DNA of 64,000 nt from Lama guanicoe (Eukaryota), in assembly GCA_013239625.1 (NCBI GenBank), contig MU053823.1, forward strand, positions 147,698 through 211,697, written 5' to 3'. Shown piece by piece: positions 1-32,658 of the stretch; position 1 is the first letter of the stretch; each line of letters starts with the position of its first letter. A model generated the notes under the pieces. That model was not told where the DNA came from and made no database searches. It saw nothing but the letters and a program-made list of their open reading frames with translations. Position numbers and translations under genes: made by a program.

Positions 1-176
1 TCAGGTTGTCCGCAATGCTCTGTTCTGCCTGGAAGAGGCCTGGAAATCCACCTCAGAGGCCCAAAGAAGTCTTGTCTATACCAAGGCATTACTGGCCTAT
101 GCCTTCGCCCTAGCAGGAAACCAGACCAAGCGGCGTGAGCTGCTTGAATCCCTAAACAAAGAGGCTGTAAAAGAAG
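1..176 (+). CDS. PZP-like paralogue exon 28 (probably starts just before the window)
   Basis: [57 protein letters not shown]; donor G|gtaaga at 177. Confidence 0.92.
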
Positions 177-632
177 GTAAGAGCTCCTACAGCAAAACTG
201 ACTTCCCAAAATCTCCAGTGACCAAAAGAAGAGAGAGGACCTGATGAATTCACACCTATCACCCATCATGCTTGTATTATATTGTATCCATTATTTTGTG
301 ATAAGAAGAAGATGATGAATTATTATTGATATAACCCTTAAATTCTCTAGGTAACATGAATCATTTTATCATTTCACACATTATAGACTCTCAACAGCCC
401 AGCTTCTAATATCACACAGATATGTAATAGACACAAAGGCACAAAACACAGTGTGATTGGCTGAAACCCTAATTTACTTTCTTGGCAAAGTTTTGCCTGA
501 TTGGTGATTACTTAATACTTTAATTTCATGTATGTCCATTCACTAGGGGAGCTCTAATTACAATGATCATTCACGAATCAGGTTTTGAAACCGCTCTCTA
601 AGCTTAAGATTGGATCCTTTTTTATTTCAAAG

Positions 633-856
633 GGGACTCAATCCACTGGCAACGTCCTGGGAAACCTCAAGAAGTTCATGCACTCTATTATCAACCCCGG
701 GCTCCTTCTGTTGAAGTGGAGATGACATCTTACTTGCTTCTTGCCTATCTCACTGCCCAGCCTGCCCCATCTCCAACAGATCTGTCTATGGCTACAAGTA
801 TTGTAAAATGGATCACCAAGCAACAAAACCCCAACGGGGGTTTCTCTTCCACTCAG
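633..856 (+). CDS. PZP-like paralogue exon 29
   Basis: [40 protein letters not shown]...[12 protein letters not shown]; 224 nt, same as A2M exon 29. Confidence 0.93.
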
Positions 857-1709
857 GTCTGTGAAGACACTCTAGGGAGAAAATTAAATATATGAATATG
901 TATGTAGACACAACCATCTTCTAGAAGTTGAATAATTGAAAAGTGCTTCTAATTTATACTTTATTTCTCCACCACCAGAAAGGTTCCAGCCTCATTATTT
1001 TCTATATGGATAATTTCTGTGTCCTCTGGACAGTCTCAGATTTTCTCTCCTTAGTGGATCCTCAACTGTAAAATAGGTCAGCCTCACTAAAGCAATCATT
1101 ACTTTCCTGATAAAGTAAATTTTTCTTCATCTAAAGACTAAAGTTATCTCATATTCTGCCCAAAATATTTCCTCCCCAATAAACATGAATACTGCTATCT
1201 AATTAGGCTGATCCCTTCACTTTTTCTGGAATTTGCTGACTGTTTTGCATGTCTTCACATGTAATATTTCCCACCCTGGTGCTCCCTGATGCCTGTCTTC
1301 TGTCTCTATAAACTTTTCTCTTTTAAAATTTAGAGATAATCCTGTTTCTTACCTTCTTCAGTCTTCTCTTCCTATGCTAGCTCCAATTTCTTCTCTCTCC
1401 TCTGAATTTTTCCAACAAATATTGTTACATAAATTTATAAATTATTGAAATATCCTCTGGTTTAAAATTTTTGAGTCTTATTGCTATACATATATTGTAA
1501 ACTACTTGAACGGGAAACTTCTTCATTTGCCCCCAGAGTACTTAGAGTAGTTCATGATTAATAACCAGGTCTGGATTGACTGGAAATTCAATTAATGAAC
1601 TGTGTTTATGACTAAATAACTCTGAGAGAGAGCGGTGTTGACGTGGTTTATATCCAGTTGGACTTTGTTACCTTCCTCTCCTGTAATTTCTGCACACATC
1701 TTTTTTCAG

Positions 1710-1928
1710 GATACGGTGGTAGCGCTCCAAGCCCTCTCCAAATATGGAGCAGCAACTTTCGCTAAAAGGGAGAAAGCGGCTACAGTCACTGTCAAGTCTT
1801 CAGACTCCTTCTCTAAAGAATTTCAAGTAGATGAAGCCAATCGCCTACTGCTGCAGGAGATCAGGTTGCCAAAGATTCCAGGGGACTACAGCACAACAGT
1901 GTTGGGGTCAGGATGTGTCTACCTGCAG
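1710..1928 (+). CDS. PZP-like paralogue exon 30
   Basis: [17 protein letters not shown]...GSGCVYLQ; 219 nt, AG/GT flanks. Confidence 0.93.
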
Positions 1929-2096
1929 GTGAGACTGCCACGGTTTGGGGGATACTACAAATGGGAGAAAGTCTCAAGAATTAGATTTGAATTTCAAAAT
2001 AGCAAAAGAAATGTGGGCTAAGGTATAAATCACCTAGAGGAGATAGACTATTTGAGTGCAAAGATAAAGGTTTTTTTTTTTTTCAATTTGTTTTAG

Positions 2097-2227
2097 ACCT
2101 CGTTGAGATATAACATCCTGCCCAAGAAAGAAGGAAAAGCTCCCTTTACCCTGCAAGTTGATACTCTCCCCAAGGACTGTGATGGAGTCAAAGCTCACAG
2201 AAAAGTCCAGATTCACATCAACATTAG
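2097..2227 (+). CDS. PZP-like paralogue exon 31
   Basis: [43 protein letters not shown]; 131 nt (one codon longer than A2M exon 31). Confidence 0.92.
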
Positions 2228-2590
2228 GTAAATCCTAAATCACTACCAGACCTTTTGTAGAATATGGTGAAATTGATTTTCTTGTGCAGGGCAACTCCAT
2301 GATCCAAGGTCATGCATAGTGAATAAGAAATTCTTGCAATATTTACTAAAAAGAAAAATTTCTTCACTCTTACTGAAAAGCCCTAACATTGAGAATTTGA
2401 TGTTATCATACCTGCAGAGTATGAGTTTATAATGATGAGCTTTCCAAACAAGTATAGCAGAGGCCAACAGAGAAGCTGAGTAGTAGGTAGGGCTAGGGAA
2501 CACTAGAAAAGGAAGAAGAGAGAGTTCGGTCTTGAATGAATTCCAAAGGATTTTATTTGACTGCCTTGTCCCTGTGCCTTGGCTTCATAG

Positions 2591-2681
2591 TTATACTGGG
2601 GAACGACCCAGCTCCAACATGGCCATTGTGGACGTGAAGATGGTGTCAGGCTTCATACCAGTGAAGTTATCAGTGAAAAAG
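2591..2681 (+). CDS. PZP-like paralogue exon 32
   Basis: [30 protein letters not shown]; 91 nt. Confidence 0.93.
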
Positions 2682-3013
2682 GTAAGCCCCACATCCCTTA
2701 CAAGAGCGAAGTCACGATAAACGCTGGCATTTCTGTTTGTCAGTTTGGTTCTATTGACTCAGATCTCCAAGAGGTTGTTTCCCCAGTGTGTGTTTCCGTC
2801 ATTTTAATGGTGGGCATCCTAGTTCCGTCATGTGGTCTCAAGTATAAGATATAAATCATAAACACGATTAATAATGTTCCAGCAGGCCCTATGACTTCAA
2901 GGGATGTGGAGTGCATTGAATTATCTTCCAACTATATAGAAAAAGAAAAAGGGAGACCATAAGTATGTATATACAAATATTCTCCCTTCTTTTATATATA
3001 GTTGGACAATAAT

Positions 3014-3028
3014 TCTCTCTCTCTCACC

Positions 3029-3065
<37 letters not shown>
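3014..3065. repeat. (CT)n(AT)n compound microsatellite
   Basis: Directly visible. Confidence 0.9.
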
Positions 3066-3280
3066 CTGAAAATATATATATTATATAGGTAGAGAGAAAG
3101 AGAAGGTTTAATAAATACTACTTTTATTATTTTTTAATTATTATTACTATCATTCTCAAAAACATCAAAATCAGTGGTTTTGATGTTTCTGAGAAGCCAT
3201 TTAGAACATAAATACCAGAAAACTGCTTCAGCCCCAAATTTCCTCATCCCATACCTTTGGCTTGTCTTCTTGGTCAACAG

Positions 3281-3349
3281 CTCCAAGAAAAGCCTTAGAT
3301 ACAAAGGACTGATGTGAGCACCAACCATGTCCTGATTTACTTTGAAGAG
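3281..3349 (+). pseudogene. PZP-like paralogue exon 33 with in-frame TAG
   Basis: CTC CAA GAA AAG CCT TAG ATA CAA AGG... = LQEKP*IQRTDVSTNHVLIYFEE; 69 nt, canonical AG/GT. Confidence 0.9.
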
Positions 3350-3685
3350 GTAAGATTCTCTGCTAGATCTGGGAGAGCCTCTCGACGCTCCAACAACCAA
3401 TCCAGATTCCGATTAACGTATTTCATATACACAACGTATGAGGGGAAAAGAAAAGCTACAGAGGAAGTGAAGCCTGGCCAGCTCAGATTACTGCATTTGA
3501 CTGTCCATAGAATTCCCTCTTTTACTGGTACTGAGTGTGTTATGCAAGACTTAAAATGGCTCATTCTTTCCATAGGTTTCAGTACAGAGGACAGCCTAAG
3601 TACAGGGCCTGATAATACCTTCAGCAAAGAGTAACTAGTAATTAAATGACTCTTTGATTCCAATTCAATTGTCTTGTCTCTCCAG

Positions 3686-3788
3686 CTAACGAATCAAACC
3701 TTGAGTTTCTCCTTCTTAGTGGAACAAGACATCCAAGTAAAGAATTTAAAACCAGCTACTGTGAAGGCCTATGATTATTATGAGACAG
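3686..3788 (+). CDS. PZP-like paralogue exon 34
   Basis: [34 protein letters not shown]; 103 nt. Confidence 0.92.
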
Positions 3789-4616
3789 GTGAGTGGGACT
3801 CAGACATGCTGAGCCTTGAAAAGAAAGAGATGACTAACCTAGCATAGGGTCACCTGAACTGAAAGAAAACTCCATAATCTTTCATTTGATGAAAGAGTGA
3901 ATTTATGGTTTCACAGGACAATCATATCCCTATATATTAATATGTCATGTGCCCCTAAACAAATCTTAGAGCCACTCTTATAAATTGATCATAAAGCAAC
4001 AGAGTATCAATTCTTTCTAATTCCTCTGTGAAGTTGTTAGTTCTGGACTGAATTATTCCAGAAAGATAAGAAGAGCAGCAATAACTAAAAAAATAAATAA
4101 ATAAACACCTCTTGGTACTGATGTGTGACACAAGTCCCCAGATTTAATCTATTTTTAACTTGTGCTTTGATTAGTCTCACAGATTTGGGGCAACTTTGTC
4201 ACATATCAGAAAATTCTTCCATTTGCTCATAACTTGGAACTAGAAACTTACCAGCATCTTAGCATGCGAGTAGTGTTCAAACTTTACTCTTTCTTAGAAA
4301 ATAAAATGTTCAGAGAGGAAGGTACAACTCCAATAACAAAAATATAGATGTGAAAAAGGGCTATACCGTGTCCTATGGAAAGACAGTTATCTATTTGTGA
4401 AATCTACCTCTCAGCTGTGTTTTCAAGCCCAATTTTCTCTCCCCCCCTATCCTGCAACCAATCCCAAATGGTTTAGTACAGAAGTCAGTCTTTTTTATTG
4501 ACTCCATAACTGTGCTTTATGCTTTCTTTGGTAGCTCACCCAGTTTATGTACAATTCACTACTCATGTGCCTATTACTGAATGGCTTCACTCTGTCTCAT
4601 CATTTTTGTGTTTCAG

Positions 4617-4658
4617 AGGAATTCACCATTGAAGAGTACAGTGTCCCCTGCAGTTCTG
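4617..4658 (+). CDS. PZP-like paralogue exon 35
   Basis: EEFTIEEYSVPCSS; 42 nt, AG/GT flanks. Confidence 0.9.
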
Positions 4659-9960: not shown

Positions 9961-10069
9961 ATAACCACAATTTAATTGCTAAAAACCAATATACCATTTA
10001 ACAAAGAGAAACCAAAGTTTTAGCTTTGCATTAATATATTTTGTAGCAAGTTTTATAAGATTTAAAATT

Positions 10070-12499: not shown

Positions 12500-12769
12500 A
12501 AATTCCTTCTTACTAGAAGGTAAACTTTATCCTCTGGAAATGCTTCGGAGCCTGTCAGGGTTTGGCCTTGCGAGCACTGAGGCAATCACTGAGAGCAACA
12601 GCCCTTTCAGGGAATCCGTGCCCAGCTACGAACTCTGTTTGGAGGCCCCAGGGTGGAGTTTGTTTACAAGGAGTGGCCTCATAAAGCCTGGTAACTTGGA
12701 GAGATCGCAGGGACCAGGCTGAGGGCAGGGAGTCGGACACAACACAGCATCTGAGCCTTGTCCCTCACT
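12500..12769 (+). promoter_or_regulatory. Orphan alpha-macroglobulin (PZP-like) promoter and 5' UTR, paralogous to the A2M promoter
   Basis: Colinear blocks shared with 22030-22296: tttatcc, agcctgYcagg, tttcag, gtggaN..TGTTTAC (12661-12667), CATAAAGCCTGG (from 12680), gggaccag, gcagggagt, acaacacagc. Confidence 0.8.
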
Positions 12770-12852
12770 ATGGGGAAGGACAGACTTCACTCCTGTCTCA
12801 CGCTGTTCCTCCTCGTCCTGATGTCCATCAACACCTCAGCCTCTGCAGGACC
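12770..12852 (+). CDS. PZP: Orphan signal-peptide exon 1 of a PZP-like gene (relic, or alternative first exon of A2M)
   Basis: ATG in strong Kozak context (actATGG); MGKDRLHSCLTLFLLVLMSINTSASAG-P; phase-2 donor CC|gtaagt. Resembles A2M exon 1 in this window and my recollection of human PZP (MRKDRLLHLCLVLLL...). No own exon 2 found before A2M. Confidence 0.75.
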
Positions 12853-13363
12853 GTAAGTCTCGCTCCAAGTCGCTTCCACAGGAGTCTGTTTGTTATTTCA
12901 GTCTCTCCCTTATATCTTTGCTTTGCCTTTCCTACTAAATACTACCCTCTGTTCCTTAGCATACCTTATGATTATAACAGATTGAGACACTTTTTCTTTC
13001 ATTTACCCTACACTTTTGAAACAATGTTTTTCGTTGGGTTGATAACAGTCATAAACACAGTCTAAGTAGTCACTGAGAAGCAAGATTTGATGAGACACTG
13101 AAACCTCAGACCCCACCTTCACAGAATCAGTCTTTAAGATAGAAGCTATTGGCTATAAAAATATTTAAAATGTACAGTCGGGAGCAATTTAACTCATATT
13201 GCAGGTTATATATGTTTAGAAAGCAACGAACATGTTAAGTTAAATCATGAGCATATATTTTACAAAATTCATACTGTGGAAAACTGACAAATAGCTCAAT
13301 TTCTCCAACAAATAAATTGTCTCAGAAAGAAGAGAGAGAAGCAACAGAATTTGGGAGATTTAA

Positions 13364-13475
13364 GAATCTGAAACGAATATATGTATGTTCGTGTATGACT
13401 GAAGCATTGTGCTGTACACCAGAAATTGATACAACATTGCAAACTGACTATACTTCAATAAACAAATAAATAAAT
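13364..13475 (+). mobile_element. Short 5'-truncated L1 3' end with target-site duplication
   Basis: gctgtacaccagaaattga...ctgactatacttcaataaa tail; flanked by agaatttgggagatttaa (13346-13363) and agaattgggagatttaa (13476-13492). Confidence 0.85.
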
Positions 13476-15069
13476 AGAATTGGGAGATTTAAAAGACATT
13501 GTCAGTCAACCAATCACAGTATATAGACCTAATTTTGATCTTGAGTCCAACATTTTTTTAAAACATCATGACATGTTAATAAGTAGTTATACATTTTCAC
13601 TGGCTGAATATTTGAATATATATGATATCAAAATACTTTGCTAAATGTTTGTGTGTAATAGTGATACATTTTTTGTTTAAAAATAACCCTTTTCTTTTGG
13701 AAATACACATTGAAATATTTATGGGTTTTGCTTTAAAATGATAATGGGAAAGGCGAAGTGGTGAAAAGGTGAAGGCAGATGGGACGGTGGACGGGATGGA
13801 GGTAAGGCAAAAGTGAACCCAGGTTGATGATATTAGAACCAGGTGTTATGGGTCCAGTAGTTCATTATATTAATATAATATTTGGATTCATTATACTATT
13901 TAGCCTAATTTTATATCTGTTTGAAATTCTCCACCATAAAAGCTTTAAAATTAAAAGAAAATAACAATGAAAGTTATAAAACACTTAGAATTGAACAATA
14001 ATTAAAACATTATATATCAAGATACCTAGTTTATTTGTTTAGATACCTGATACACATAGAAGTACATTTTATAAACCTAAACTAACTACACATATTGAAA
14101 AATCAAGAAAGATTTGTTAAATGGAAGAAATGAGTTAGAAAAAAAGCTAAAAAAAATGAAAAAAAGAAAAATGTAAAGAATGTTAACAGGGAAACTGTGA
14201 AGAACAGAAATTAATAAAGTAGAAGTCAATAAAATGACAAAATCAAAAAAACAAAAAGTCAGTATTCTAAAGATTAATGAAATAAGTAATTGGTAACTTT
14301 GAAAGCCTAGATGAAAAAGAGAATACTCTAGAAGAAAAAAATTTTACAAATGATCAAAATTAAAGGTAGATTACTTTGAAAAACTGAATAAACCAGTGAC
14401 CATAAAAGAAAGTGAATTAGTAATAAAAAGTATTCCTTCACTTAGAAAATACATTAGCATAACAATATTTTACAGAAAAGCTTCACCAAGCTTTCAAAGA
14501 AATGATTACCCTTATCCTAAAAACACTATGTAGAGAGCAGAAAAAGAACACCTGCGCGAATAATTTTAAGAGTTTACTATCACAAGAATCAGGTAGTCTA
14601 TCTGTGTATGCAGGTGGAAAGGAAGAGGTTTGTCTAGCAAATACGATTTAAGAGGAATAACCTTAGATTCTTAGAAGTCTTTTTTTTCCCACCTAAGAGT
14701 GTCTGCTAGGCATACACTTACTTGTTCTGAATCTTAATGTAGGGTACTGTAGTCAAAACTTTGACTTCTTTTTATTTCAAGGGTTCATTTATTGTCCTGG
14801 ATATGATTTTTCTCATGATACCCAGGAATAAACATGAAAGAAATATTTAAATATATATATAAGAAAAACTTCAAAATACTAAAGAAGAACACAAAAAGGA
14901 CTTGAACAGAAGTTAAAACTTACTATATCTTTGGATAGGTTAAGTTAGCATCATAAAAATGTCAATACTCCCTAAATGTATTTATAAATTTTATATAATC
15001 TTGAAATAACACTAGAATCAGAGATGCTGATTCCAAAATTCACATGAAAAATAAATGCATAAGGATATG

Positions 15070-15362
15070 TGAAAAAATATAATATTTTATATTATAAATT
15101 TATTTATATATATAAATATATATATGCACGGATTGGTCTGTGCCCCCAGTTCCTGGCACAGAGCTCCTAAAACCCTTGCAATTTCCTAAGTGCTAAGAGT
15201 ACTTGGGTCATTACTAGGCCTGGTTCCCGACACAGAGCTCCTAAATCCGATGAAATGTTTTAGGTGATAGGAAGGCTTTTGTTCTAGTGAGGAAACTTTT
15301 GGTGGGCTCCTGGATAACTTCAGGATGGGGGCTAGTCACCAGAAAGAGCAAGCCATGATTAG
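15070..15362 (+). mobile_element. MER21-like LTR, 5' fragment
   Basis: tcctggcacagagctcctaaaacccttg ... ggatgggggctagtcaccagaaag...agccatgattag matches my recollection of MER21. Confidence 0.65.
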
Positions 15363-17698
15363 CGCCTATTCGTGCCCAACACAATGGCTTCGATCTCCAC
15401 ACCTCAGTGTTCTGGGCGGCTGCGCCCCCTTCTGGTTTATCCTTATCTCTGCACTGCTTATTATAACGCCTTTTGATCTCGTTCTCATCGGGTCAAGTTG
15501 CTGATCCGTTCTTTCATAAGGAATGGTAGCTACTTAGGAAACAAAGTTAACCCATGTTCCCACCATCTCACTGCTTCCAGAAAAGAAACAGTTAAGTTGC
15601 AATGCTAGTGTTCTTTATTGAATCCTGAGATTAAAATTCTACATTTCTAGAACCATATTTCAGCTTGTAGAGGTAGAAGGAATATATGTGTGGTGCAGTA
15701 ATGGCGTTATCAAGTAAGGGCCAAAGGGGAAACTGGGGGAGGGTCATTCTATTCACTACTATATAAGACAGTCATAGCCCGGTAGCCTAGCAAGAGGTCT
15801 CTGCAAGCTTTTTACCCAGTAATGTGAGGTTATGAAGATAGATACGTGAAAATGAGAATTCCAAGACCACCCTGCTCTTCCCCCCACCTTTATCTTTTAT
15901 TTTCTTTTTTCCAAAAAAAAAAAGTTACACAACATACCTAAATTTAAACTGTGCATGTTTATTTTTCTTTTCTCAAAATAAGCAAAATACACGTTTTCCC
16001 AGCTTGTTTTCTTTCCCAATGTGGAAAAAGACTTTACTAAAACATTAACCAGTGCTTTGGTTTCACTGCTGAAAAGGATTTGGAAAGAATGTGATCTGTG
16101 CTGATTTTTATCATCTGGTATTTTTCCCTTCCCTATTTCAAAAGTGTAGCCAGATCCTTGTGTTCTTCTGCCTTAAGAGTTTTCAAGGGTCAAAGCAGAG
16201 GCTGCTCAAAGATAACTTTGCAAAAGCCCTGGCTACTTGGGCCAATTACTCTAGGTGTTCCCGAGGAACGGGAGAAAGAAGTCTTTTGCAGGGAGTTTCA
16301 AAAAGAAGCCCCACTGGTACAGAGGATTCAAAACCAGGGGGTGGGTGGAGGTTTAGGGGACCCAGGATACTAGGCACCCGGGGGTCCCCTCCATCATTGC
16401 ATGCAGGGTAAAAGACGGGACCTCTGAGTTAAATGGCTGTGTGAGACAGACTCTGGGCCACAGAGCTCCCAGTTTCAGCAAAAACTGTGTCCAAATATAG
16501 CAAAAAAACAGCCAAGCAGTCAGGCATCAAAGTGACTGAGGGACTGGAGATTGGCATGGTTATACAGGGGTAACCGGTTTCAAGCGAAAACTAAAGCAAC
16601 TTCCCAAATATTTTGCTTTACAGACCCCAGTGTGGGAGAGCTCTAATAAAAACTCAGATTAATTCTCACCAAGAATTTTAGAAGAATGGAAGCTGAGTCA
16701 GACTTAATTCAATCTAAAGAAAATAAAGCAATGTTATATTTCTCTTTTCTGAATTGAAGTATGATTGACCTACAACACTATGCCAGTTCCAGATGCACAA
16801 CACAGTGATGTGATATTTCTATATATTACAAAATAATCATCACGATGCCATCTGTTGCCATAAAAAGTTATTACAGTATTATTGACTATATTCCCCAAGT
16901 GGTACACTTCATCCCCACGACTCAATTATTTTCTAACTAGAATTTTGTTCCATAACAACAGAGCATTGAACCATAAGTGGGAAAAACGAACAGATCTGCA
17001 AAGAGGAAGAGACGAATCTACTATAACAGGTGGAGACTTAACAACCTCCTGTCAGAAATGGACAGTTAATGTCTAGCTAATTAATGGAGTTATTTGTAAT
17101 TATTGATAAAAGCCAAAAATCAGGGTTTGGTACACTTATTAAACAAATATCGTGCCTTTTTTTCATACCTTTTGCTTCATAAATAACAATTGTACCTCAA
17201 ATTATACTTCACTATTTCAAATGAAGTAATACAAGACTACGTATTTATTCACTTGCTATGAAAGCACATGAATTTAAAAAGCAATACCATTTAAAACCTA
17301 ACAGCTTTAATAGTATTTTGCAAAATATATTGAATAATTTATTTCTTACAAAATTTTATAGTATTACTAGAAATTGTTATTTTAATAGCCTGTAACTTGA
17401 TAACATTTGGGAATAACAAAAATCAAACAAATTAGAATATACAAAGCTCTCAGAACTCAGCACACTCATATATAAGCACTTGTCATCACCACCCATCAGT
17501 ATCGTTGTCGCTGGCAGTATTGTCATTGTCATCTAAGTAATCAAAGCTTGACATCTTTCCTATTAAAATCTGACTCCAATGTTTGTTCCCAGACTAAATA
17601 TAGCTCTCTAAAACGAAAGTTCTGACACGAAAACGTTCCACAGTGAACATGAGGGCTACAGAGAACAAAGTGGATTCTTAAGGGTCATGAAACACCCC

Positions 17699-17757
17699 TG
17701 TGCGCACCCGCACACACGCACACTGTGCGTGCACACATACGCGCACACGCACACACA
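17699..17757. repeat. Imperfect (CA)/(CG) purine-pyrimidine alternating tract
   Basis: tgtgcgcacccgcacacacgcacactgtgcgtgcacacatacgcgcacacgcacacaca. Confidence 0.75.
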
Positions 17758-19364
17758 TTTTTCTTTCACCAAAGGAAAACTCGTCCTGTAACACATTCCC
17801 TACCTAGTCTTACATTCAGAAATAAACTGCATTGGGTTAAAGATAAAAACAAAAAACACAAATCCTTACATTAGGAAAAACATGTAGGAGAATAGTTCTG
17901 TAATGGGGGGAGGGGCAGTGGTACGAAAGGACATCTAATCAGAAAACAAAACCCCAGGACAAAACTTGAAGTTCAAGCGGCAGAGTTGCTACAAGTAACA
18001 GTGATATAATACATCATTAGAAATAACAGTAATCTAAACTTGGAAAGGGAAAAATACACATCATGCACTTCTCCCTGTCAGACAGTAAAATTTTTAGAAG
18101 GCATGGGAAAATACAGTCGTAGGCATTGCTGGTGGAAGACAATTGGCAGGGTCCTTTTAAAAGGTGATGTGATCTATGAATGTTTTAAGTGTGTATACTC
18201 TTTGACATAGCAAATTTACAGTACGGATTCATCATACAAAAATACCTCTAGATGCCCAGAAGTCTGTATATATGAGGACAGTCATTGAATTCTATTGGTT
18301 GTAGTCAATTGTCCTAATTTGGGCACTAATTCCTCTGCATCACAATGCAGCGTCTAGTAAAACAGATTTTTTGTGAATATCAGTACTCTTAAAAATCTAA
18401 AGGAACAAGTGGCTTTTAATTTCAAAGAGAAAACACTAAAATTTTGATGATTTTGAGAAACTGTGGCAAGCATAGTGTTGGTTGAGAAATAATCTGAGAA
18501 TTTGTTGTGCTTTTTATCTTTGTACATTCAAGTATTCTTCTCATTAAAAATTAGAAAGTGTGAATGAGATAGAACAAATGAGAAACACTGATCTCTGAGA
18601 ACACCTCTATAGTTAATAATGCTCTACGTAACTTCAAAACTCTGTTTGCCCAAGATATTTCTGCAAAGATAAGGCAAGTATACTGTCTGACAGAGTGAGA
18701 ATGGTATGCTATCAACTGAGCTTTCTGATTTTGAAAGTGGTTAATATGTAACCAGCTGAAATGTCCTTCATTATCACTACTGTTAGGAACTACAGGTGGC
18801 CTATGTGTAACAATTGGTGTGGTTGGAGAAGCTACCTTCAGTTCCCGGCAAGCACTGCAGGGGAATCTTTCACAATCCAGAGGAAGCTTTTTTTTTCTAT
18901 TTATTTTTATTTAGGCCCTTGTACCTCCTAATCTTATCGTCCCCTCAATTGCCAAATGATCCTCCTTTGTTCTGCATGGCTGTGTTTCACTGCGCTTTGC
19001 TCCACCACTTTCTTTTCCGTACACTGCCTTCCGTCTTCCCCTTACTTTCTTTCTTCTCTTACCCCTTTACCCTCAGCTTCCTAACAGTAGTTATTTGCTA
19101 AATACTTCAAAATTGTATAGAACTTGTCCAACTTGCGTGCTCTCATTCTGTCAAGGACGTGTTAGGCAGGTGGCCTACCTTTCTTTCTTGGGATGCTGTC
19201 CTACATCAAAGCCCAGAGCAGGTATGAAACAGCTCTCTTCCTCAGTCTTTAAGGTTCAAAACATAGTCATTTTGATTGGTACAGTAAGGTTACAGATTTT
19301 AAAACTGTTACATATAGCATCTTGTGTAAAACTACCCCCTTGGAGCTTACAGGACATACATTTC

Positions 19365-19500
19365 TTTTATTTAAAAAAAATTTGGAGAGAGGTAATTAGG
19401 TTGGTTGGTTTGTTTATTTAATGGAGGTACTGGGCATTTGAACCCAGGACCCTTGTGCATGCTAAGCATGCACTCTAGCACTGAGCTATACCCTCCCTCC
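19365..19500 (-). mobile_element. tRNA-Ala-derived SINE (Vic-1-like)
   Basis: Reverse complement of the same SINE (ctgagctataccctcc). Confidence 0.85.
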
Positions 19501-20589
19501 AGGAGAGATATTATTAACCCCCTATTTATTGGTGAGGAAGCTGAGGCTCAGAGAGGTTAAATGACTTATCCAGAACCATAGAATGAGTCAGAACTAGCAC
19601 TCAGGTGTCCTGACAACTGATCCAGTCTGTTCTCTTTTTACCCTTTGAGTTCATTTTCTGGCTTCCCCAGAAGAGAAAGCTCTATCTTGGTAAAAGGAGC
19701 ATTTTAGATAAAATTTTCCTCTTTATCTGTGATTATACTGAAGTGGTGTCGCTTCTCTTGGGGATAATTCCTCCATCCACACCATGCACCCACCTCATGC
19801 ATCCTCAGAGTCCTCTGCCCTGGGATTATGGCTTCCCAGTTCCGATGTTCAACCCCTCCCCTTTCATTGATCCTCCTTCTCAGCACTCATAGGAGCAACA
19901 TTTCAGTTAAACTTGTTCAAGTCTCTCTCTCCTTAAAGAAATGTCCCTCCCACCCCAAAACCTCTGCCGGGTACCGCCCTCTCCTTCTCTTTCCTCCACA
20001 CAAGCTTGGAACAGGCTCTTGTTCCCTAGATTCTCTTCCTCCCCCTGCAGTCGGGTTCTGCCCCACACAGACACTTAAAGCTGGGTCCCCATGTTTTTCT
20101 CATCCCTCAATTCAACAGAACAACGATCATTCCATCTGTTATTTGATTTCACAATGGCGTTTGACATGAATAGCCAGGGATTTAGCAATAATCTTTACAG
20201 ATCATCTTTGTAATTTATAAGGCACCAAATGAATGCTATTACTGCTATTGCTCCTTCCTTCTTTAAGTAATGAATCTTGCAAATAAGTAGGTTTTTCTAA
20301 TTTCTTAAAAACAATTTAATTTCTGTTATAGTTTGAGTCAACATATTATAAAACTAAACAAGCTTTCGAAATGATTTTTTTTTAATTTTGTATGTTATTA
20401 ACACTGATGTCTCGGTATCAAGCCCCAATCACTCTGACTAGTAAAAACCTTCTCTTGACTATTTTTTTAAAATTGTCCCTTTTTTGGGACTCAGAGGTCC
20501 CACACTCTCCTGACTGTGTTTCTCTCTCGGTCTGGCCGTCCGGGATCCATTCGGGTGCCCATGGCCTAGACACTGGTGTTTCCTGGAGC

Positions 20590-20772
20590 TCCTACTGTAT
20601 AGCACAGGGAACTACATTCAATACCTTGTAATGACCTATAATGAAAAAAGAATATGAAAAGAACATATATATGTATATATAAACTGAACCACGATGCTGT
20701 ACACCAGAAATTAACACTGTAAATTGACTATACTTCAACAAAAAAAAATAATAAAAGCAGAAAAAAAAAGAA
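20590..20772 (+). mobile_element. L1 3' end fragment
   Basis: ctgtatagcacagggaactac...gctgtacaccagaaattaacac...poly-A. Confidence 0.8.
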
Positions 20773-22009
20773 TACCCTAGCTCAAAATGCCATTATTTCT
20801 TACCCATATAATTGTACCAACTCCCACGTTGCCTCCTGGATTGCCTCCTTTCAATCAGTCTTCCAAATATCAGTAAGAGTGATCTTTCCAAGAAGCAAAT
20901 CTGGGCAAGAAGTCACTTCACTGATTACTCCCTTAACACCCAGATAGTGCCAACAAGTTCCTTTTTTATTTGAAGCAAGCTTGCTCCACCACCTTCCTAA
21001 GTGTAAAGGCATTTTCTCCATACCAAACCCTTCTCATTCTACTAAATGTGTCCCTACTGTTCTCGCCTCCTGCGCCTTTGTTTGTGTCATTCCTTATGTG
21101 CTTAGAATGCACTCTGCATCTCTGTCTTTCCTCTGACTAACCACTACTCATGCTGCAGACCTTCATTTATATTTTTCTTTTCCTTAGACTTCCCTTCCCA
21201 GGCCCAAGGTTGAATTACGTGCCCCTCTCATGTGCTCCCCGAGCATCTTGAACTTCTCTGATAATGATGTCTGGCTTCTGTATTTTAACAGCTTGCTTAT
21301 TTGTCTGATTTCACACCCACAAGAATGTGCATATCTGTTTGTACATATTTGACCATTCCATCTCCATGATTTTGCATGATACCTAGACAAACTGGGCTCA
21401 ATAAATGCTTATAAAGTAATCAAATCATTGGGTAAATGAATGGATGGATGGATGGATGGGTGGATGGGTAAAATAGATAATATGATTAAAGACTGGAGAG
21501 GAGTAGCGTATTTGGAAGGCAGTCACAAAATGTGCTTGTATAGTAGATGGTAAAGGCACTGAGATTTTCGTAGACACAGTAGGTCAAAGGTTTTTTTTTT
21601 CAGGTCCTGCTACTTCTCCTGTCATGTTTTCATTCTCTTAGTACAGGAAAACTTTTCTATCATCCTTCTTCCAGGGCCTGGTTCTTCATCTGCAATCCAG
21701 TAATATCCTCAGGGTTAAAAACTTGTTCTTTTAACCCAGTATCATTTCCATAGAGAACTGCTAAATTCTGAAACCCCTTCAGCATTTGAGGTAGGCATAG
21801 CCAATGACAGACTTGCAGGCAGACTGACTTGTAGTGAAATATCTATTTTGAGTCTGTCCAGGGTTGCTTAAATTATAGCTTCCTCTGTCAGCTATTCATG
21901 CAAGAGATGTGAGGAAAGCCATAAAAGGTACTGTGGGGAAGTGGAAGGAGGGAGTAAGGGAGAGAAGGGGCTGAACAGCTGATTAGCTGCTTTACGGTAA
22001 ACCCCAGGG

Positions 22010-22296
22010 AAAGTGAGCACTAGTGGGAATGTGGATTTTATCCCTGCAGGAATCCTACTTAGCCTGCCAGGCATTAACCTTGACTGTAATTGGGTCCCTC
22101 AGAGTAATGACGTTTTCAGAGAACCTTCAGGGACCTCTACTTTGTTTAGACACCTTGTGTGGGTGGAACTTCCTGTTTACACAGAGAGCAGCATAAAGCC
22201 TGGTTGCTCTGAGGAATGTTTGGGACCAGACCAGACCAACTGCAGGGAGTAAGGGACAACACAGCCAGGTCTCCTCCGGCCCCTTCTCCCTGCAGC
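22010..22296 (+). promoter_or_regulatory. A2M: A2M proximal promoter and 5' UTR
   Basis: FOX/HNF3-type TGTTTAC at 22174-22180, TATA-like CATAAA at 22192-22197, directly upstream of ATG 22297. Confidence 0.8.
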
Positions 22297-22382
22297 ATGG
22301 GGAGGAACAAACTCCTTCAGCCACGGCTTTCTCTCCTTCTTCTGGTCTTCCTGCATGCAGAAGCCTCAGTCTCTGGAAAACC
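22297..22382 (+). CDS. A2M: A2M exon 1 (signal peptide)
   Basis: [29 protein letters not shown]; donor CC|gtgagt. Confidence 0.95.
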
Positions 22383-25300
22383 GTGAGTTTCATGTAGAGT
22401 CCTTTCCTTTATTTCAAATTCTCCTTTCTATCATTCGTCTTCCCCATGAAACTGTCTCATCTCTAAGGTCTCTTCCACTGATGAGATTTTTACAAATCTG
22501 GTTTATTCAGTCTTTACTTATTCTTAACCACATTTCTCTAACTCTCTGGGTCTCTGAATCTACCAGTTCTCTGGAGATATACAAAGGCTTTTGAAAGGGC
22601 ACTGGAGATTGATACTTTCAAAGGAATCAGTTTTTAGCTCCTCACACTCACCCTGATCTGCTCCAGACCATGCTATTTAATCCTTTCTTACCTCCCCTTT
22701 CTGAATTGCCCATCTTCTACTTTAAAAGAGAAAGACAAACCTCCCTCAGTCAGATGCCACCGTGGAACACTGTCCTGGAGTATAAAAGCCTCTAGTATGC
22801 CAAATAAAGGAGCAATTTGAAATACTGATGTTGACATTGAGAAAGCAAAGGACTCTAATGACAGGAGGCAAACTCCTTTTGCAGATCATGTGGTGACGAA
22901 ATCTTTGTTTGAAAAAAATTGGAGGATCTGAGAGAAATACCAGCTGATAGATGATTAGAAGCAATTCTTTTTTTTTTACAACTTCTTTTTTTTTTGTCTT
23001 TTTTTTTAACATTTTTTTTATTGAGTTATAGTCATTTTACAATGTTGTGTCAAATTCCAGTGTAGAGCACAATTTTTCAGTTATACCTGAACATACATAT
23101 ATTCATTGTCACTTTTTTTCACTGTTTGAAGCAATTTTTGATAACAGAACACTGGGTGATTTGGGGCAGGTGACGCAGAAGTTACAAGAACTAGTTAACG
23201 GTTGTATTATTGTGTCACCTGTCATTTATTTACTTTTGTGTGAATAATTTTTCATGGCACTTAACATCTACACAAACCAAAAATAGCAACAGAATGAATC
23301 TTAGATCTTGTTTAATTCTTGCAATAAAGAATATCCATTCATGGATACAGAAAATGAACTTATGGTTACCAGGGGGAAGGGGGTGGGAAGAGATAAATCG
23401 GGAGTTCAAGATTTGCAGATACTAACTAATATATATATAATAGACAAACAACAAGTTCATGCTGCATAGCACAGGGAACTATATTCAATATCTTGTAGTA
23501 ACTTATGGTGAAAAAGAATATGAAGACGAATCACATGTATGTTCATGTATGACTGAAGCACTGTGCTGTACACCAGAAATTGACACAACATTGTAAACTG
23601 ACTATACTTCAATAAATATATATATGCAAAAACAAACAAGACAAAAAAAAAGCTCATTGTTTTCATTAAAGATGTGCTTCAAAAGTATTTTGATTTTATG
23701 CATAATATATATGAATCATAATCTGTAATATATTTATTTTGTTTTGATTAGTTGTATACTAGTAAGACTTCTGAAAATAATTCAATCCAGAAGAAAATGT
23801 TTAACATTAACAACTTTATGGTCACATTAAATCTAAAAGAAGAGTTAAAGTTAAATTTATTTATCCACATAGAATATTACATATATATGTGTGTGTATAT
23901 ATACATATATGTGTATGTATATTTATATATCTATATAATAAGTAAATAAAGAAGTAAGAATGATCCAGAAAATATTTTGAAGTACAAAAATCTTAGGATA
24001 AACTTCTGTGTGGTAAGGGGCATGATAATTCAAGTTCAAGGAAGAAAAGGGGGAAAGATGCTAAATTTCTGATCACTGCCCAAAAAAACACTGTGGTACA
24101 TTTTTTAAATAAGTCATACTGGGTATCTTATCACTGATATTTAAAATTCCATGGAAGACTTGTAAAAGAGTAATGTAAGTATTAACTTAAAATATCATCA
24201 AAAATAATGTATTTTGCTATTGTTTAACTTGTGATTTAAAAAAAGATCTTTACTTAAAAATATGTAAGGAATGTATAATGTCTAAAATTTATTTTAGGAA
24301 TTCTGTGACCAAAAATGTCTGGCGACTACAGGATCAATAAAATCATCTATTTGTCTAGCCATGAGTTGAAAGGCAAATATTTAATATGCAAACATCTAGG
24401 GTTAAGTAACACACTAAGATCTTATTAGTTGCTTAAAACACTGAGACTTTAAACTAATGACTCTCATTAAGCTTCAGATTTCATATCTGTAAAGCGGAAA
24501 GCAAATACTTGCCGTGCCATTTTCACAGGGTTGTTGAATGTATATATTTTTTCAATGAACAATTCTGTAAATTGGTTTTTGTAGTGCCACAAATGAGAAC
24601 TTCCTTGCTTTTTACAGCAACCCTAATGTAAAATGGATTTACAGTGTTAATAAATATACTTGGCATATTTTTATTTGAATTCAGATGCTTATTTGGGTTC
24701 CTTAAAAGTGAGCTATACCTACAAGTTTTAATCTGCCTAAGGCTCACTTCAAGTAAAATGGTCACAGCCAGGGCTCTGATGATGGAAAAGGGAATAACTC
24801 TCACACGTGCCATTCAACTGCAGAGAGCAATTTCACGCTAATCAATATGCCTTCACTTGGCACAGAACTAATGATGGTAACATGAACTGCAGGGGAAGAC
24901 AGTGCTGCTGAGAACAGTGCCTCACTTGCCACACTCTCCTCTAACTGGACTCCCGCTCTTCCAGGCACTATATGGTGCTGGTCCCCTCCCTGCTCCACAC
25001 TGAGACCCCTGAGCAGGGCTGCCTCGTTCTGAGCCACCTGAATGAGATGGTGACTGTAAGTGCCTCCTTGGAGTCCCTCAGAGAGAACAGGAGCCTCTTC
25101 ACTGACGTGGTGGCAGAGAAGGACTTATTCCACTGTGTCTCCTTCACCGTGAGTATGGCTGTTTGGCTTAATATACTTGTTTTCATTGTCCAGGGACACA
25201 GGGATCTAGAATTCAGTCAAGATAAGACTTTGAGAGGCTGGCAAGGACTTCAGGAAGGGATTTAAATGCAGTGATGGGGTGTAGAAAATAAGAGCAATGC

Positions 25301-28300
25301 ATGAATTTCCAACCACGATAGACGGTATTCATGGAGACATTAAAAATCAACTTAATGATCAGAGAAAATTCCTATTAGCCAGAAAAAAACAGCAGTATGC
25401 ACTAGACAAAGGGGAAATGTGACTTCTACTTAAAATTAAAATGGAAACAATATCAATAAAGCAAACAAGGCCGATATTCAGCATAAGCCCCAGTGGTGGG
25501 CTGACAGGACCACGTCACCCCATTGTCTAAGAGTGAAACTGTAGACCTCACCATGAGCAAGTATGCAGTATCTCTTCAGAACTGCCCATATGTAAAATGC
25601 TCACAGCCTATGAGAGTCCAGTGTATAATTGAATCCAGACTGTATCGGCTGGTCTGTAAGGAGATGTGGGTCTCATTTATGACCTCTCTCGCTGATGTAT
25701 TTTCCTCCATCTTGTGTTCTGTCTTCCCAGTCGTAAAATGACAGAAGTCATTCTACCCGTGAATTCCTGTCTATGCTAACTTTTCTCTTCTGAGGCTGAG
25801 AGAATGAAATTAAGCTAAAGGGAGAAGTGGGACAGGGACTTGGGGAGGAAACTTGGGAGACTGAATGGGTTCTCAAGATCTCTCCTATATTTCAGGTCCC
25901 AAGATCTTCATTCAAAGAGGAGGTAATGTTCCTCACTGTCCACGTGAAAGGACCAACCCATGAATTCAAGAAGCGGACCACAGTGCTGGTTAAAAACAAA
26001 GAGAGTCTAGTCTTTGTCCAGACAGACAAACCCATCTACAAACCAGGGCAGACAGGTACAAAGAGGCCTATAGTCAGGACAGCTCAAAAACGAAAGGTCC
26101 CCCTCCTCTGCGTATTCCTCAAAGGACTCCTGATTCCTTAATCGTTTGTCTTACTTGCCTATAGGGCTGGTTCAAGGCTTTTGAGATTCATGGAAAATAT
26201 TTCTGTTTCAGTGAAGTTTCGTGTTGTCTCGTTGGATGAAAATTTTCACCCCCTGAATGAGTCGGTAAGTCTCTTAATATCTATATAGAATTATTATTAT
26301 CTATATAAATAGGCTGGGAGCTTGTTTTTGGTGTTGGAGGAGGACCAGGGAGAGAAAGAATCTGGTATTTATAACAGCAATTTCTGGCATTACCATAGGG
26401 CAAAATCACAATTTAAAACAGTCTTCTGGCCAAGAGAGAGTAGTTAGTTCTATCTTGGTAGTGGTACTTAGCCATTTGTCACACAGTTCAACCAACTCTT
26501 TAGAAAATTCTTAATGAGGCATGTATCCATCCCTATTAGAATGTAAGCTCCATGAAGGTAGATATATTGTTGTTTTGTGTGTTGCTGTATTCCCAGCACC
26601 TAGAATTACATACAGCACGTGGTAGGCACTTAATAAATATTAGTTTTAAAAATGAATAAACAATGACAGTAGAGGAGCTATTCCCATTCCTCCTTATTCT
26701 TAGAACTACCTAAGAATACTGTGACCCACCGTAACATTTGGATCTGAACACGGTAACTTATAGCTCCATTAGTGTTTATTTCTCAGTCTGTAGAACAGCA
26801 TAGCAGTGTTCTTCACTGGGATGCTTACAAGCATTTAAGTGATATTAGTAAATCCCATTCCGAATGAATGGCACGTATGCATTTGCTGCTGACAGCCCAG
26901 TAAGTGCTTAACATTATTCATTAATTGCTTATAATGGATTAATTAAAAGTTCTGTAAAACTTGATCTACCATTTGTCTGTGTTTTACTGCAGATAAACTT
27001 ATTCTACATAAAGCGGTCTTGCTTATAAATTAGAACTGAGAATATTTCAGAACAATTCTCAATTCCTTTCTTCCTCTTTTGTCTTTCAGAGTCCACTAGT
27101 ATATATTGAGGTAAGCAATGTGAAACATTCCATAATTAGACATAAAGTAATAAATTCGAGGAAAATGTTCTTATTTGAGAGAGTCTTACAATAGTTCAGA
27201 AACGTGTTACTCATGGAGAAGCCTTCAGACTCATGTAACACTAGGTGGTTCTGATCTTCCCGCCCCGTCCCTCATCACCTCTTTGTGGACAACATAGGAG
27301 TCCCCATAGATTTCCTTTACTGTCTCTAATGCTCTAGGCTCTTTTGTAAATTACAGTAACTGTGCCCATAGGACCCCAAAGGAAATCGCATCGCACAGTG
27401 GCAGAACCTCAAGCTAGAGAATGGCCTCAAGCAATTGACCTTTGCCCTCTCGTCAGAGCCCATCCAAGGCTCCTACAAGGTGGTGGTACAGAAGGAATCA
27501 GGTGGAAAAGCAGAGCACCACTTCACTGTGGAGGAATATGGTATGGATTATGAAAAAATCATGGAACTTTTTTTTTTTAATTTAAACTTCAAGGGCCTAG
27601 AATTTGAGCAGACTTGGAATTCTTCTGTTTCCCATGGGTGAGCTTGGGCTTGGAGCTAATCTAATCTAGCTTACGTCTAAATTCAATGAGGACCATCAGT
27701 GATTTGTGAATAGGACTTCATATAGCTTTATGTAGCAATTTTTAATCTGAAAAAAATGTAAAACACTCTTACTCTAGTGGCGTCTTCCATAATTCATTTA
27801 GGTTACACTGATCCACCATAGTCCTTCAACCCAGGATTTCCATTTGCGAGTACGGTGGATACGCTGGAGAAGGGGGCTACCTTTCGGGGCCCTGAAGTAT
27901 TACTAGGGAATTGTTACTGAGAACCTGGAAATACCAGTTCCCTGAAAGGTGAAAACCAATCACGACTTCCTTTATCTCCACGAACAGTGCTCCCTAAGTT
28001 TGAAGTGCAAGTTACAGTGCCAAGGATAATCACTATCTTGGAAGAAGAGGTGACAGTGTCAGCGTGTGGCCTGTGAGTTTATACTTTTAACAAATCTTTT
28101 GAGGGGAATGAATTATTTAAAGGAGGCTCACCATTGGAGCTATTTTGGCTGGCTTGTTAGGAGCAGAACAGCACAAATACCTTCCATACACGGGCACACC
28201 CCCATCTCTAGAACTGTCCTCTCCTGCTGCTTTTCCATTTTCCTTCTTATTCCCTTTCATGTCCTTACCAGGATTATTACAGCTATCATGGGGAGAGCAA

Positions 28301-31300
28301 CTGTTCCGAGAGAGGCTATGCTACTAGGGTGGATTCTGAAAGTAACAAAGTTAGTCAAGCATGTGCACGCACACACACACAAATGAGACAGTGTTGAAGG
28401 GTAGTGACTTTCCCTTCACCAGCTTGTAGAGAAAATTCAATTAACAACAGATCATTTACCTGACCTTGCATACATAGTGGAAAATGGCTTACATTCAGAA
28501 CCGGCAGAGATAAACATATTACAGAAATCTCACCTAATCTCATCCTCTCATGCACCCACTGTTCAGATGGGTCCCTGCCTCAGCACTATCTTGAGAAACC
28601 CCTGCCAAGTTCCTGATCCTACGTAGCTGGTGAGCCAATATTCTTGCAAACAGAGATACAGACGAAATCTCAAATAGGGAAGCAATTATCAATGACAGAT
28701 TTAGGGCACAATCCCATTTTTGTCAAGAGTAAACAAGTACAATTCTATATGAACAGAGGAGGGATGGTGGGAAGACAGATAATAGTTTATATTTTTAAGT
28801 AGAACTCAGTGTTTCTTCTCTTTGCTTTGTTCATATTTTTTTTTTCTCTCTTAAGAGCTAGTGTAGCTTTGGCAATAAGAAAAATATTTTTTAAAAAATG
28901 AAACTGAAAATTAAAGATTAAGAAAAAAGATATGGTAAAAGAAGACTGCAGGAAACTTCAGCATGTTGCACTAGAAATTTATAAAAGAAAAGGATCATTG
29001 CTTCGTTTACTTGCCCTCAACACTGTATGAGCCCTGCAGAAGTTGAAGGGAAGTACAGGGAGTGAAAACATACCATTGCTAAAGGGGAACCGTAAGTAGG
29101 TGGAAAATGGGGGTGTTCAGTGTCTCATTTGATTTATTTGGCAATGTTCTGGTGACAGATACACATATGGGAAACCTGTCCCCGGACATGTGACGATAAG
29201 CATGTGCAGAAAGTACAGTAACCCCTCTGACTGCTTTGATGGAGAGTCACGTGCCATCTGTGAGACGTTCAGTCAGGAGGTATGTGGGAAACTTTTCGTT
29301 CAAGGCATTGTTGATAAGCAGTGAGTTACAACACGGGGCTAACTCAGGAAGAGACCCATCTATGAGAGGATTCTATGCTAATGACAGTAGTTTTTGAAAA
29401 ATTAGTGACTTAGCACAATAGGAATTCTTTCTTGTAACTGTCCGTTGTGAGTGTTTTTGGCGCACCACGCCCCCAGAATAACGGAAGTCGCGCCATCTCC
29501 AGCACCTGGTATCAAGCCGCCTTGAGAATCCAACTGGGTAAAGGAAAGAGGGAAACATACACACCTTAGCCACCTCGGCTGGGAAGGACGTCAACTTTTC
29601 TCTTTCTATGAGCCACGCTTGTCATATGCCCCCACCTAGATGCCAGAGAGGTAGGAAACACAGTCCTCAGGTGGGCAGGCACTTCCCAGCAATAGCTCCA
29701 AACTATGGGAAGGGAGCCAGACTTCAGTGAGGAGTTGGCTGCCTGCTATAGTAAGATTACCCCCAAATCTTACAGCATTTCACTCTCATTCACTCTACAG
29801 AATATCAGATATTAAGGAATACACTTGTGGATTATAAGCCAGAAACTGTTGCAAGATGTAATAATAATTAATCCCTAGAAAATGTGTATTGTGTTCTTAT
29901 CATGGAAAATTCCAAGGTTATGCTGCCTCAAAAAAGAAAAAATCCCACCAGATTGACCACTGATGTGTCCAGTCTTATGTTTTTGTATTTTATTTCGTCC
30001 TCTCCCAGCTAAACAGCAAGGGCTGCTTCTCTCAGAAAGTAGACACCAAGATCTTCCAGATGAAGAGACAAGGATTTGAAATGAAACTTGAAGTGGAGGC
30101 CAAGATCCAAGAAGAAGGAACAGGTTTGTGTACACAGTGTAATTTTGGGAGAACGAACAATGGACACTGATTCATTTCCTTTGCCAAATTACGAGTCGTA
30201 AGGGGGAGGTAGTGTAAATTCAAGGAGCGCATCCTTCCAAAAGAGAACTTAATTCCTCCTTCTTTTTCAGAGGTGGAATTCACTGGAAGAGGGTCCACTG
30301 AAATAACAAGAACCATAAGCAAACTGTCATTTGTGAAAGTGGACCCGTACATTAGACAAGGAATTCCCTTCTTTGGGCAGGTGAGGTATTTTTCAATTCA
30401 CAAATACCATACCTAATTCATATTATCTGTTGATTAATATAATCAGAGTTTTAAACCAATTAAAATAGATTTGTTCCTCTGTAAATCTGTGTACCAAATC
30501 TGTAAAAATCATTCCAAAGACTATCAAAATTAGAAGTTTTTTGCAACAGCACCGCGTGACGTCACTCGATCTCTTTCCCATGGTTCACCAGGCACCCTCA
30601 GACTTTTGTAACATTTTCTCACACGAATCTCAAACTTCATGGCGGCCAATTACATTCTCCTTCGAACATTAACGTTGTATGGAAATGAGTGGGTCAGAGG
30701 CTTTAATTTTTATTTTGACATATAAAAGATCCTACCATACCTAGGGTTTCTTTCCTGGATATTATATTTACATTAGTTCTTCCATAATAGCAAGCATATT
30801 TCAAAAACAGGACACATGGGGTAAAGGACTGCTATTCAATGTTCCCACATTTTAAAAATCTAAATTTTCTCACAGATCTACACAGAAACCTTCTGTAGTT
30901 ATTTTTTTTCCTTTATAAGTGCATATGCAAAGGGATCCTTTGGATTCCACAAGTCTAAGATGACAGCTGTATCTACCTCCGTGTGTAATTACTGTGTATC
31001 TTGTTACGAATGGAAATGTTACAAGACCTTAGCTGTGGAGCATGTAAAAGAGGGACCAGACTGCACAAAAGAGTGGGTAGAATAATTTTAGGATGTTTTG
31101 ATTACGCTATGACAGGAAACATATTCAAAAACTTTGGTCACTTCCTAAAATGAAAGTAAATTCACCTTTTTTAAATTTCTCAGAGGTACACTGCACTTCT
31201 TTGAGATTTTATCCCTGCTAAGTAACTGTCCTACTAGTCATAAGACTCTTGTCGAAAGAGAAATAGTGAACTTTGTGCCTGTTCTTTGTCTTCATATCCT

Positions 31301-32623
31301 AGCTGACATTTCATTGGCAAACTGAGATTTTGTTAATCAGTTACAAACACTAATCCAAGTCTGCTGGCTGTGCTTCCTTGTACCAGATGTAGCTTATACA
31401 CCATCTTTACAATCTGAACTGAAGTATTCATCTTCTGAGTTCAATATGAGCTGTAATTTGACTTTAGGTCCTTATTTAATACTTTGTGATTCTTTTCAAT
31501 TTCACATTTTTCAAATGGAAAGTGCCTTCTAAAATTGCTCACTGTGATATGGCTCTTGTGGTCTGTGACTTGCCAAAAGTTATATATAATAGACGGCATC
31601 TCCCAGACATGGACAGAATACAGTCTTCAGGTCACCTCTGTCATCATCTCCATCATTCTCTTCATGCTGCTTTGTCTTCTTTGAACTGATTACCACTCAA
31701 TAAGTACATATTATTTACGTGTTTATTTAGCTTCTGTCTCTTGTACTAGTCTGTAAGCTCTGTGATGGAAGGAACTTTGTTGTGTTCACTGCTGTTGCCT
31801 CAGTGCCTGGAACCATGTGCAACATACTGGACACACTCAATAAATACTGGGGATAAAATGAATGTATGGTGCCTATTGGATAGGAGCCACATAACTGATC
31901 TGCAGTTTTTAATCTTCAGGTGCTCCTAGTGGATGGGAAAGGTGTCCCCCTGCCAAATAAACGCATCGTCATCACAGCGAACGAAGCCAACTATGCCTCT
32001 AACGCCACCACCGATGAGCACGGCCTGGTGCAGTTCTCCATCAGCACCACCAACCTCACAGACACCTCCCTCACTGTCAAGGTAAGTTTGCAAGGAAGTG
32101 ACCAATGACATGATGTGGCCTTGGGGAAAAAAAAGGTTGCAACCTAAAAGTGATGAAATGTCCGAGTTGTGTTTAGTCCCATGGAGAGAAAATAAAGCTA
32201 GACATTAGAAACCAATTTCAGGTCAATTTTGAAAAAAGTAAATTAAAAAGGAGGCAATGGAGTGTTGTGGTTAAGGGGGGTTCCATTCATGCACTCCTGC
32301 TGGGAATATAAAATGGTGCAACTGCTATGGAAAACAGTATGGCAGGTCCCCTAAAATGAAAGTAGAACTACCACATGATCCAGTATCCCCACTTCTACGT
32401 GTATATTCAGAAGAATTGAAAGCAGAATCTCAAAGGGATATTTGCACAGCCATGTCCATAGAAGCACTACTTACAATAGCCAAGAGGTGGAAGCAACCCA
32501 AATATCCATCAACAGATGAATAGAATGCGGTATGTACACAGCCTTAAAGAGGAAAGAAATTCTGTCTTGTCTTACCATATGGATGAACCTTGAGGACATT
32601 ATGCTAAGTGAAATAGCCAGTCA

Positions 32624-32658
<35 letters not shown>

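Follow-up and report, generated by a model that had tools for sequence, protein, structure and literature searches.

The window analysed here, i.e., the whole stretch of 64,000 nt of Lama guanicoe DNA (G000:C1746:147698-211697), carries on its + strand, in this order, PZP2, a lone first exon of the PZP class and A2M (Table 1). PZP2, whose 3' exons lie at the window start, is a third paralogue that was absent from the initial annotation. For the exon at 1710-1928, the best protein matches are named 'pregnancy zone protein-like' and reach 78-96% identity, and the exon pieces are 81-94% identical to the camelid protein P0003, with five of the six pieces at 92-94%. Such PZP-like proteins feature N-termini of a third class, MRGNQLPNPVLILLFLLLPRDAS..., and form their own clade in a tree of 65 proteins from which the exon 1 part had been removed. 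The upstream neighbour of the lone exon is a PZP2 gene that appears intact. For the human locus, the initial annotation had assumed the order A2MP1-PZP-A2M. The gene name PZP2 was adopted from Braschi, Seal & Bruford (2026, PMC12874980), the main text of which uses the name PZP2P and never A2MP1, and describes PZP2 and PZP as adjacent in most species, with PZP adjoining A2M. The lone exon is situated between PZP2 and A2M and hence occupies the slot held by PZP in other mammals.

Table 1. Features of the alpha-macroglobulin locus in the window (positions in nt from the window start; a slash marks an exon-intron junction)
Feature	Position	Strand	Basis or remarks
PZP2 last exons ('pregnancy zone protein-like', alpha-1-macroglobulin type)	1..4657	+	ORFs, splice contexts, protein matches
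PZP2 exon pieces	about 2-175, 632-856, 1710-1928, 2589-2687, 3275-3352, 3683-3796, 4613-4657	+	
Putative relic PZP-type promoter and 5' UTR	12520..12769	+	blocks common to A2M core promoter
PZP-class exon 1, coding part (candidate distal A2M exon '1B')	12770..12852	+	ATG, 27 codons + CC, GTAAGT donor
DNA between distal exon and A2M promoter (front part of the candidate distal intron 1)	12853..22160	+	9.3 kb, no alpha-macroglobulin exon
Proximal A2M promoter core and exon 1	22161..22382	+	ATG 22297, donor after 22382
A2M exon 2, acceptor common to both first exons	24965..25148	+	TTCCAG/G
Remaining A2M exons, exon 3 to last coding exon	25890..57102	+	HSPs of Camelus A2M P0123

The downstream gene (22297-57102) is A2M, as shown by 32 HSPs with Camelus A2M (P0123), which are mostly 90-100% identical, compared to 38-89% against human PZP. 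The isoform X1 models of alpaca and camels begin at an in-frame ATG at 22216 (MFGTRPDQ...). As the TATA-like box of the proximal promoter of A2M precedes this ATG by only about 25 nt, the resulting N-terminal extension of 27 residues is probably a longest-ORF artefact, with the real start at 22297. In addition, an older alpaca model (XP_031526388.1, P0250, 1486 aa) reads intron sequence (48698-48901) instead of the exon 48207-48362; it looks like a mis-spliced prediction which has been superseded by the newer models X1 and X2.

There is no N anywhere in the window. An Rfam search of 3800-25300 returned two tRNA-like SINE heads, at 9569-9635 (+) and 19422-19495 (-) with 31 and 35 bits, respectively, and nothing else; further copies of this tRNA-derived SINE family are located in A2M introns at about 33446-33513 and 48475-48593. 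The contig itself exceeds 320 kb and holds further members of the alpha-macroglobulin family about 63-68 kb upstream (+) and about 106-110 kb downstream (-) of the window. In these (G000:C1746:79562-85424, +, and 317267-321894, -) the two most conserved exons reach 42-52% and 59-61% identity to bat PZP. Based on their position, the upstream relative is perhaps of ovostatin type and the downstream one of A2ML1 type.

The lone exon and its upstream region comprise all elements that had been reported for them in the initial annotation, each at the position given there: a TGTTTAC motif (12661-12667, +), which we take to be forkhead-like, a TATA-like element CATAAAGCCTGG (12680-12691, +), the ATG at 12770, a signal peptide and a phase-2 donor at 12852. 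The distance to the A2M start codon, formerly put at 9.5 kb, amounts to 9,527 bp (12770 to 22297), with no coding sequence separating the lone exon from A2M. The distal ATG is flanked by A at -3 and by G at +4, and 12680-12769 contains no further ATG. The frame opened at 12770 comprises 27 codons plus 2 nt and encodes a hydrophobic peptide of signal-peptide type, MGKDRLHSCLTLFLLVLMSINTSASAG, before the exon ends at the donor ACC/GTAAGT. A distal transcript would be expected to start near 12710, about 30 nt past the TATA-like box. The promoter-exon stretch of 431 bp is single copy in the 2.05-Gb assembly. The lone exon has a start codon, an open frame for a signal peptide and the donor phase of the proximal exon 1, and no disabling change (loss of the ATG, stop, frameshift or loss of the splice site) occurs in it within the window; likewise, the proteins of camels, cattle and Kogia that start with a PZP-class exon imply none. 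Judged by disabling changes, the distal exon would therefore not be classed as a dead pseudogene. Directly 5' of the putative relic promoter, a block at 11600-12400 shows 56-60% G+C, compared to 39% for the window. Its CpG observed/expected ratio of 0.31 rules out a CpG-island promoter, and the block may be an old repeat.

The assignment of the exon to one of the paralogues relies on its peptide. Among the proteins retrieved with A2M exon 2, two N-terminal classes were found, namely an A2M class (MGKNKLLHPSL.LLLLVFLPTDASVSGKP) and a PZP class, the latter being carried by human PZP (P0174), Myotis PZP (P0218) and proteins of squirrels and xenarthrans. In a permissive tblastn search of 3850-22200 (11 protein queries, E<=50), all nine queries with a PZP-class N-terminus matched 12770-12853, six of them at E<=0.01, while neither the A2M-class query P0248 nor the PZP2-class query P0003 gave a match at 12770-12853 among the 60 best of 550 rows. 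Counted by hand on the tblastn alignments, the lone exon has 21 of 29 positions in common with Myotis PZP and equally 21 of 29 with the Kogia isoform X2 described below. Thus, by its encoded peptide the lone exon is a member of the PZP signal-peptide class. The same search found family matches in 3850-22200 only at the lone exon and at the last PZP2 exon, in line with the earlier statement that exons 2-36 of PZP are missing ahead of A2M. Accordingly, the position and the exon 1 class of a PZP orthologue are present and the full coding body is absent. The proposal that the exon represents the head of the PZP orthologue is borne out by its PZP-class peptide and its place between PZP2 and A2M; with no PZP body left, it is a relic of PZP and not a PZP gene.

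Both first exons of the locus fit the same acceptor. As in the distal exon, the final codon of the proximal A2M exon 1 is cut after its second nucleotide, and Pro results when the terminal CC of either first exon meets the first G of exon 2. Joining 12770-12852 to 24965-25148 results in 89 codons without a stop, and the translation equals the first 89 residues of alpaca A2M isoform X2 (XP_072810495.1) without any difference, by which the reading frame of the junction with A2M exon 2 postulated in the initial annotation is confirmed. The distal intron 1 would span 12853-24964 (12.1 kb) and hold the proximal promoter and exon 1. The distal exon is 100% identical to residues 1-28 of the alpaca isoform X2 (P0242), and the same exon, with the single substitution M18I (27 of 28 residues identical), is found in Camelus dromedarius (XP_010989099.1) and Camelus bactrianus (XP_074213342.1). 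Proximal exon 1 plus exon 2 correspond to residues 28-117 of alpaca isoform X1 (P0248). Past exon 1, isoforms X2 and X1 show no mismatch in alpaca, C. dromedarius and C. bactrianus. The description of the exon as an orphan can thus not be maintained, as it is already annotated as a first exon of A2M in three camelids, albeit in records which are automatic gene models.

Isoforms of the same kind occur beyond the camelids. The Bos taurus protein A0AAA9SLL8 has a PZP-class start followed by a sequence without mismatches to a Bos taurus A2M over 440 shared residues, and isoform X2 of A2M from Kogia breviceps (XP_058938489.1) shows no mismatch to X1 over 1448 residues past exon 1. Both proteins were placed in the A2M clade of the 65-protein tree, which was calculated after removal of the exon 1 part. 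In a search with full-length Myotis PZP, the rows named PZP among the best 120 of 4141 hits (at least 71% identity) came from bats, bears, felids, hyena, mole, shrew, primates, squirrels, xenarthrans and tree shrew. No cetartiodactyl PZP was named among these best 120 of 4141 hits; all seven named cetartiodactyl rows (Kogia, Orcinus, Camelus, Bubalus, Bos mutus, Ovis and Sus) were A2M, with 67-70% identity. Two perissodactyl rows were A2M as well, and seven of the 120 rows had no name.

Given this distribution, the deletion does not seem to be a recent one, as had been considered in the initial annotation: the arrangement is common to alpaca and camels, and the same kind of isoform exists in cattle and Kogia. 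Camelids diverged from the lineage of ruminants plus whales in the early Cenozoic. The arrangement is old if it is ancestral, but independent deletions may have occurred. Among the felid proteins concerned (P0200, P0201, P0233), one from Lynx (P0201, 'A2M-like isoform X3') is the same as the true Lynx PZP (P0200) over the first 75 residues printed and has a body near felid A2M, with 28 mismatches in 1446 columns to Prionailurus A2M as opposed to 377 to P0200. It represents either a chimeric gene model or a PZP-to-A2M read-through transcript. As a parallel to the camelid exon it was ruled out, since Lynx keeps a true PZP and P0201 shares both exons 1 and 2 with it.

We consider it probable, as far as sequence can tell, that A2M has kept a relic PZP promoter and exon 1 as an alternative, distal first exon. 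According to this explanation, the PZP body (exons 2-36) would have been lost, and promoter and exon 1 would have been left 9.5 kb 5' of A2M on the same strand. In a transcript begun near 12710, the donor GTAAGT at 12852 would be spliced to 24965, by which the 12.1-kb intron would be removed and the proximal A2M exon 1 left out. The predicted product is a pre-A2M with a PZP-type signal peptide. In analogy with the cleavage site of A2M, the signal would be cleaved near ..NTSA/SAGP, and the secreted A2M would be changed only in its first few residues and be one residue shorter. We infer that the promoter fires, in certain tissues and with PZP-like regulation; that such regulation has been kept by the distal promoter is speculation.

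Public sequencing runs were searched with 12700-12852. Of 24 runs listed, 18 contain at least half of 11 sampled words. These include six runs recorded as RNA from two studies, one of them labelled as reproductive-system transcriptomes, in which 9 of the 11 sampled words of 12700-12852 were found, together with eight runs guessed to be RNA (four studies) and four of unknown kind (one study). All of these matches are shared words, and an RNA run may contain the stretch as contaminating DNA; the RNA-recorded runs lend weak support to the alternative first exon.

The most serious competitor, which we nevertheless regard as unlikely, is a silent relic, i.e., a decaying PZP promoter and exon 1 to which the X2 models would have been attached as artefacts of alignments with PZP or A2M proteins from other species. 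The X2 models are indeed automatic, the exon is short, and the Lynx protein P0201 with its PZP head and A2M-like body illustrates that such models can be chimeric. Moreover, an ORF of 27 codons, one ATG and one GT could outlast some time without selection, which speaks against the retained exon as well. The camelid, cattle and Kogia lineages parted tens of millions of years ago. Still, alpaca and two camels, and likewise the isoforms of cattle and Kogia, show an undamaged ATG, ORF, phase and GT donor, and the core promoter blocks are still in common with A2M. Besides, the same design emerges from two annotation sources, RefSeq and the UniProt entry for cattle, and the RNA-labelled runs of two studies contain the exon.

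The relation between the two promoters was assessed by local alignment, in which 12651-12861 and 22161-22391 are identical in 158 of 237 columns (66.7%, score 51). By comparison, the top score was 32 among 200 shuffles and 34 among 181 further genuine 1-kb pieces taken from the window. As the observed score exceeds both maxima, promoter and exon 1 of the distal copy are true paralogues of the proximal ones, beyond chance. MAFFT additionally pairs blocks farther upstream (about 12527-12575 with about 22034-22083) and indicates a weak similarity to A2M intron 1 over the first approximately 80 nt of the distal intron, up to about 12930, whereas the local alignment ends at 12861 and reaches neither the upstream blocks nor the intron similarity. 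The similarity to A2M into the intron start, which had been claimed earlier, is hence confirmed only in part, being reflected in the MAFFT blocks but ending at 12861 in the local alignment. A blastn comparison of the intergenic DNA with the A2M gene returned interspersed repeats only and did not detect the promoter paralogy itself. Paralogy with, and proximity to, A2M exon 1 would also be expected if the lone exon and its promoter had been copied locally from those of A2M within the camelids, without any origin from PZP. This is very improbable, as an identity of only 66.7% is too low for a camelid duplication, the peptide is of PZP rather than A2M class, and PZP-class counterparts exist in Bos and Kogia.

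Searched with bat PZP, the 2.05-Gb assembly (55,231 contigs) contains no PZP exons of PZP grade elsewhere; this whole-assembly search, which used a stricter first look, yielded exons of A2M (up to 81%) and of PZP2, besides weaker relatives with at most 61% on this contig and at most 59% on others. That a complete PZP was collapsed out of the assembly or placed elsewhere is scarcely credible: despite the 55,231 contigs and the proneness of tandem paralogues to collapse, the window is free of N and lies within a contig of more than 320 kb with further family members, the exon is single copy with no PZP-grade match elsewhere, three camelid annotations give the same isoform, no cetartiodactyl PZP is named among the best 120 of 4141 bat PZP matches, and cattle are reported without PZP in the main text of PMC12874980.

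Under the preferred reading, in which the PZP head is retained as a distal first exon of A2M, a further step may be proposed only tentatively and with some doubt: in even-toed ungulates and whales, splicing onto A2M might have preserved the head over tens of millions of years, and A2M would thereby have gained inducible expression of the PZP type (pregnancy, oestrogen, inflammation, reproductive tract) beside its own promoter. If true, the choice of promoter would let a single gene cover the tasks of two. If the promoter is active and differently regulated, it would offer a genomic basis for pregnancy- or inflammation-linked changes of A2M in livestock, and expression studies should count both first exons separately. 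The notion that PZP is missing would be refined for camelids, and probably for cattle and whales, in that the body is gone and the regulatory head may persist as a second A2M promoter. With regard to annotation, the exon deserves the label PZP-derived. In practice the finding carries modest weight, given that a public transcript model exists already and the mature protein hardly differs. The case is of moderate interest for specialists of the alpha-macroglobulin family and otherwise of low surprise.

Parts of this picture are already known, since the exon is annotated in camelids and the loss of PZP has been published for several species, cattle and horse among them. In the literature searched, no description of a PZP-derived first exon of A2M was found. 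In the main text of PMC12874980, the terms 'first exon', 'promoter' and 'alpaca' occur zero times and 'camel' only within the name of the ostrich. What was found in neither is the link between the two facts, namely that a PZP head survives and, according to the reading preferred here, works for A2M in the camelids and, it seems, also in cattle and Kogia.

Compared to known systems, the closest counterparts are the isoform X2 models of camelids in RefSeq, which represent the same object as the distal exon joined to A2M exon 2; these records are named as A2M isoforms only, and no PZP origin is stated in them as seen. The Bos protein A0AAA9SLL8 and the Kogia isoform X2 resemble the camelid case in combining a PZP-class first exon with an otherwise unchanged A2M, though the orthology of their exons to the camelid exon rests on 28-29 residues, the comparison being one of proteins. 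According to the main text of Braschi, Seal & Bruford (2026, PMC12874980), PZP is missing in cattle, horse, lemurs, rabbit, mouse and rat, and the dog has a PZPP pseudogene. The camelids match the losses reported there, with PZP gone and both PZP2 and A2M kept. The PZP genes of human (P0174), Myotis (P0218), bears, felids, squirrels and xenarthrans share the exon 1 class with the camelid locus and, as far as the same text describes it, the slot between PZP2 and A2M. Full PZP genes differ by a body of about 1480 residues, which forms its own clade, whereas the camelid locus keeps promoter and exon 1 only. As a whole, the arrangement would belong to a known kind of event, in which a gene takes over the promoter of a deleted tandem paralogue as an alternative to its own.
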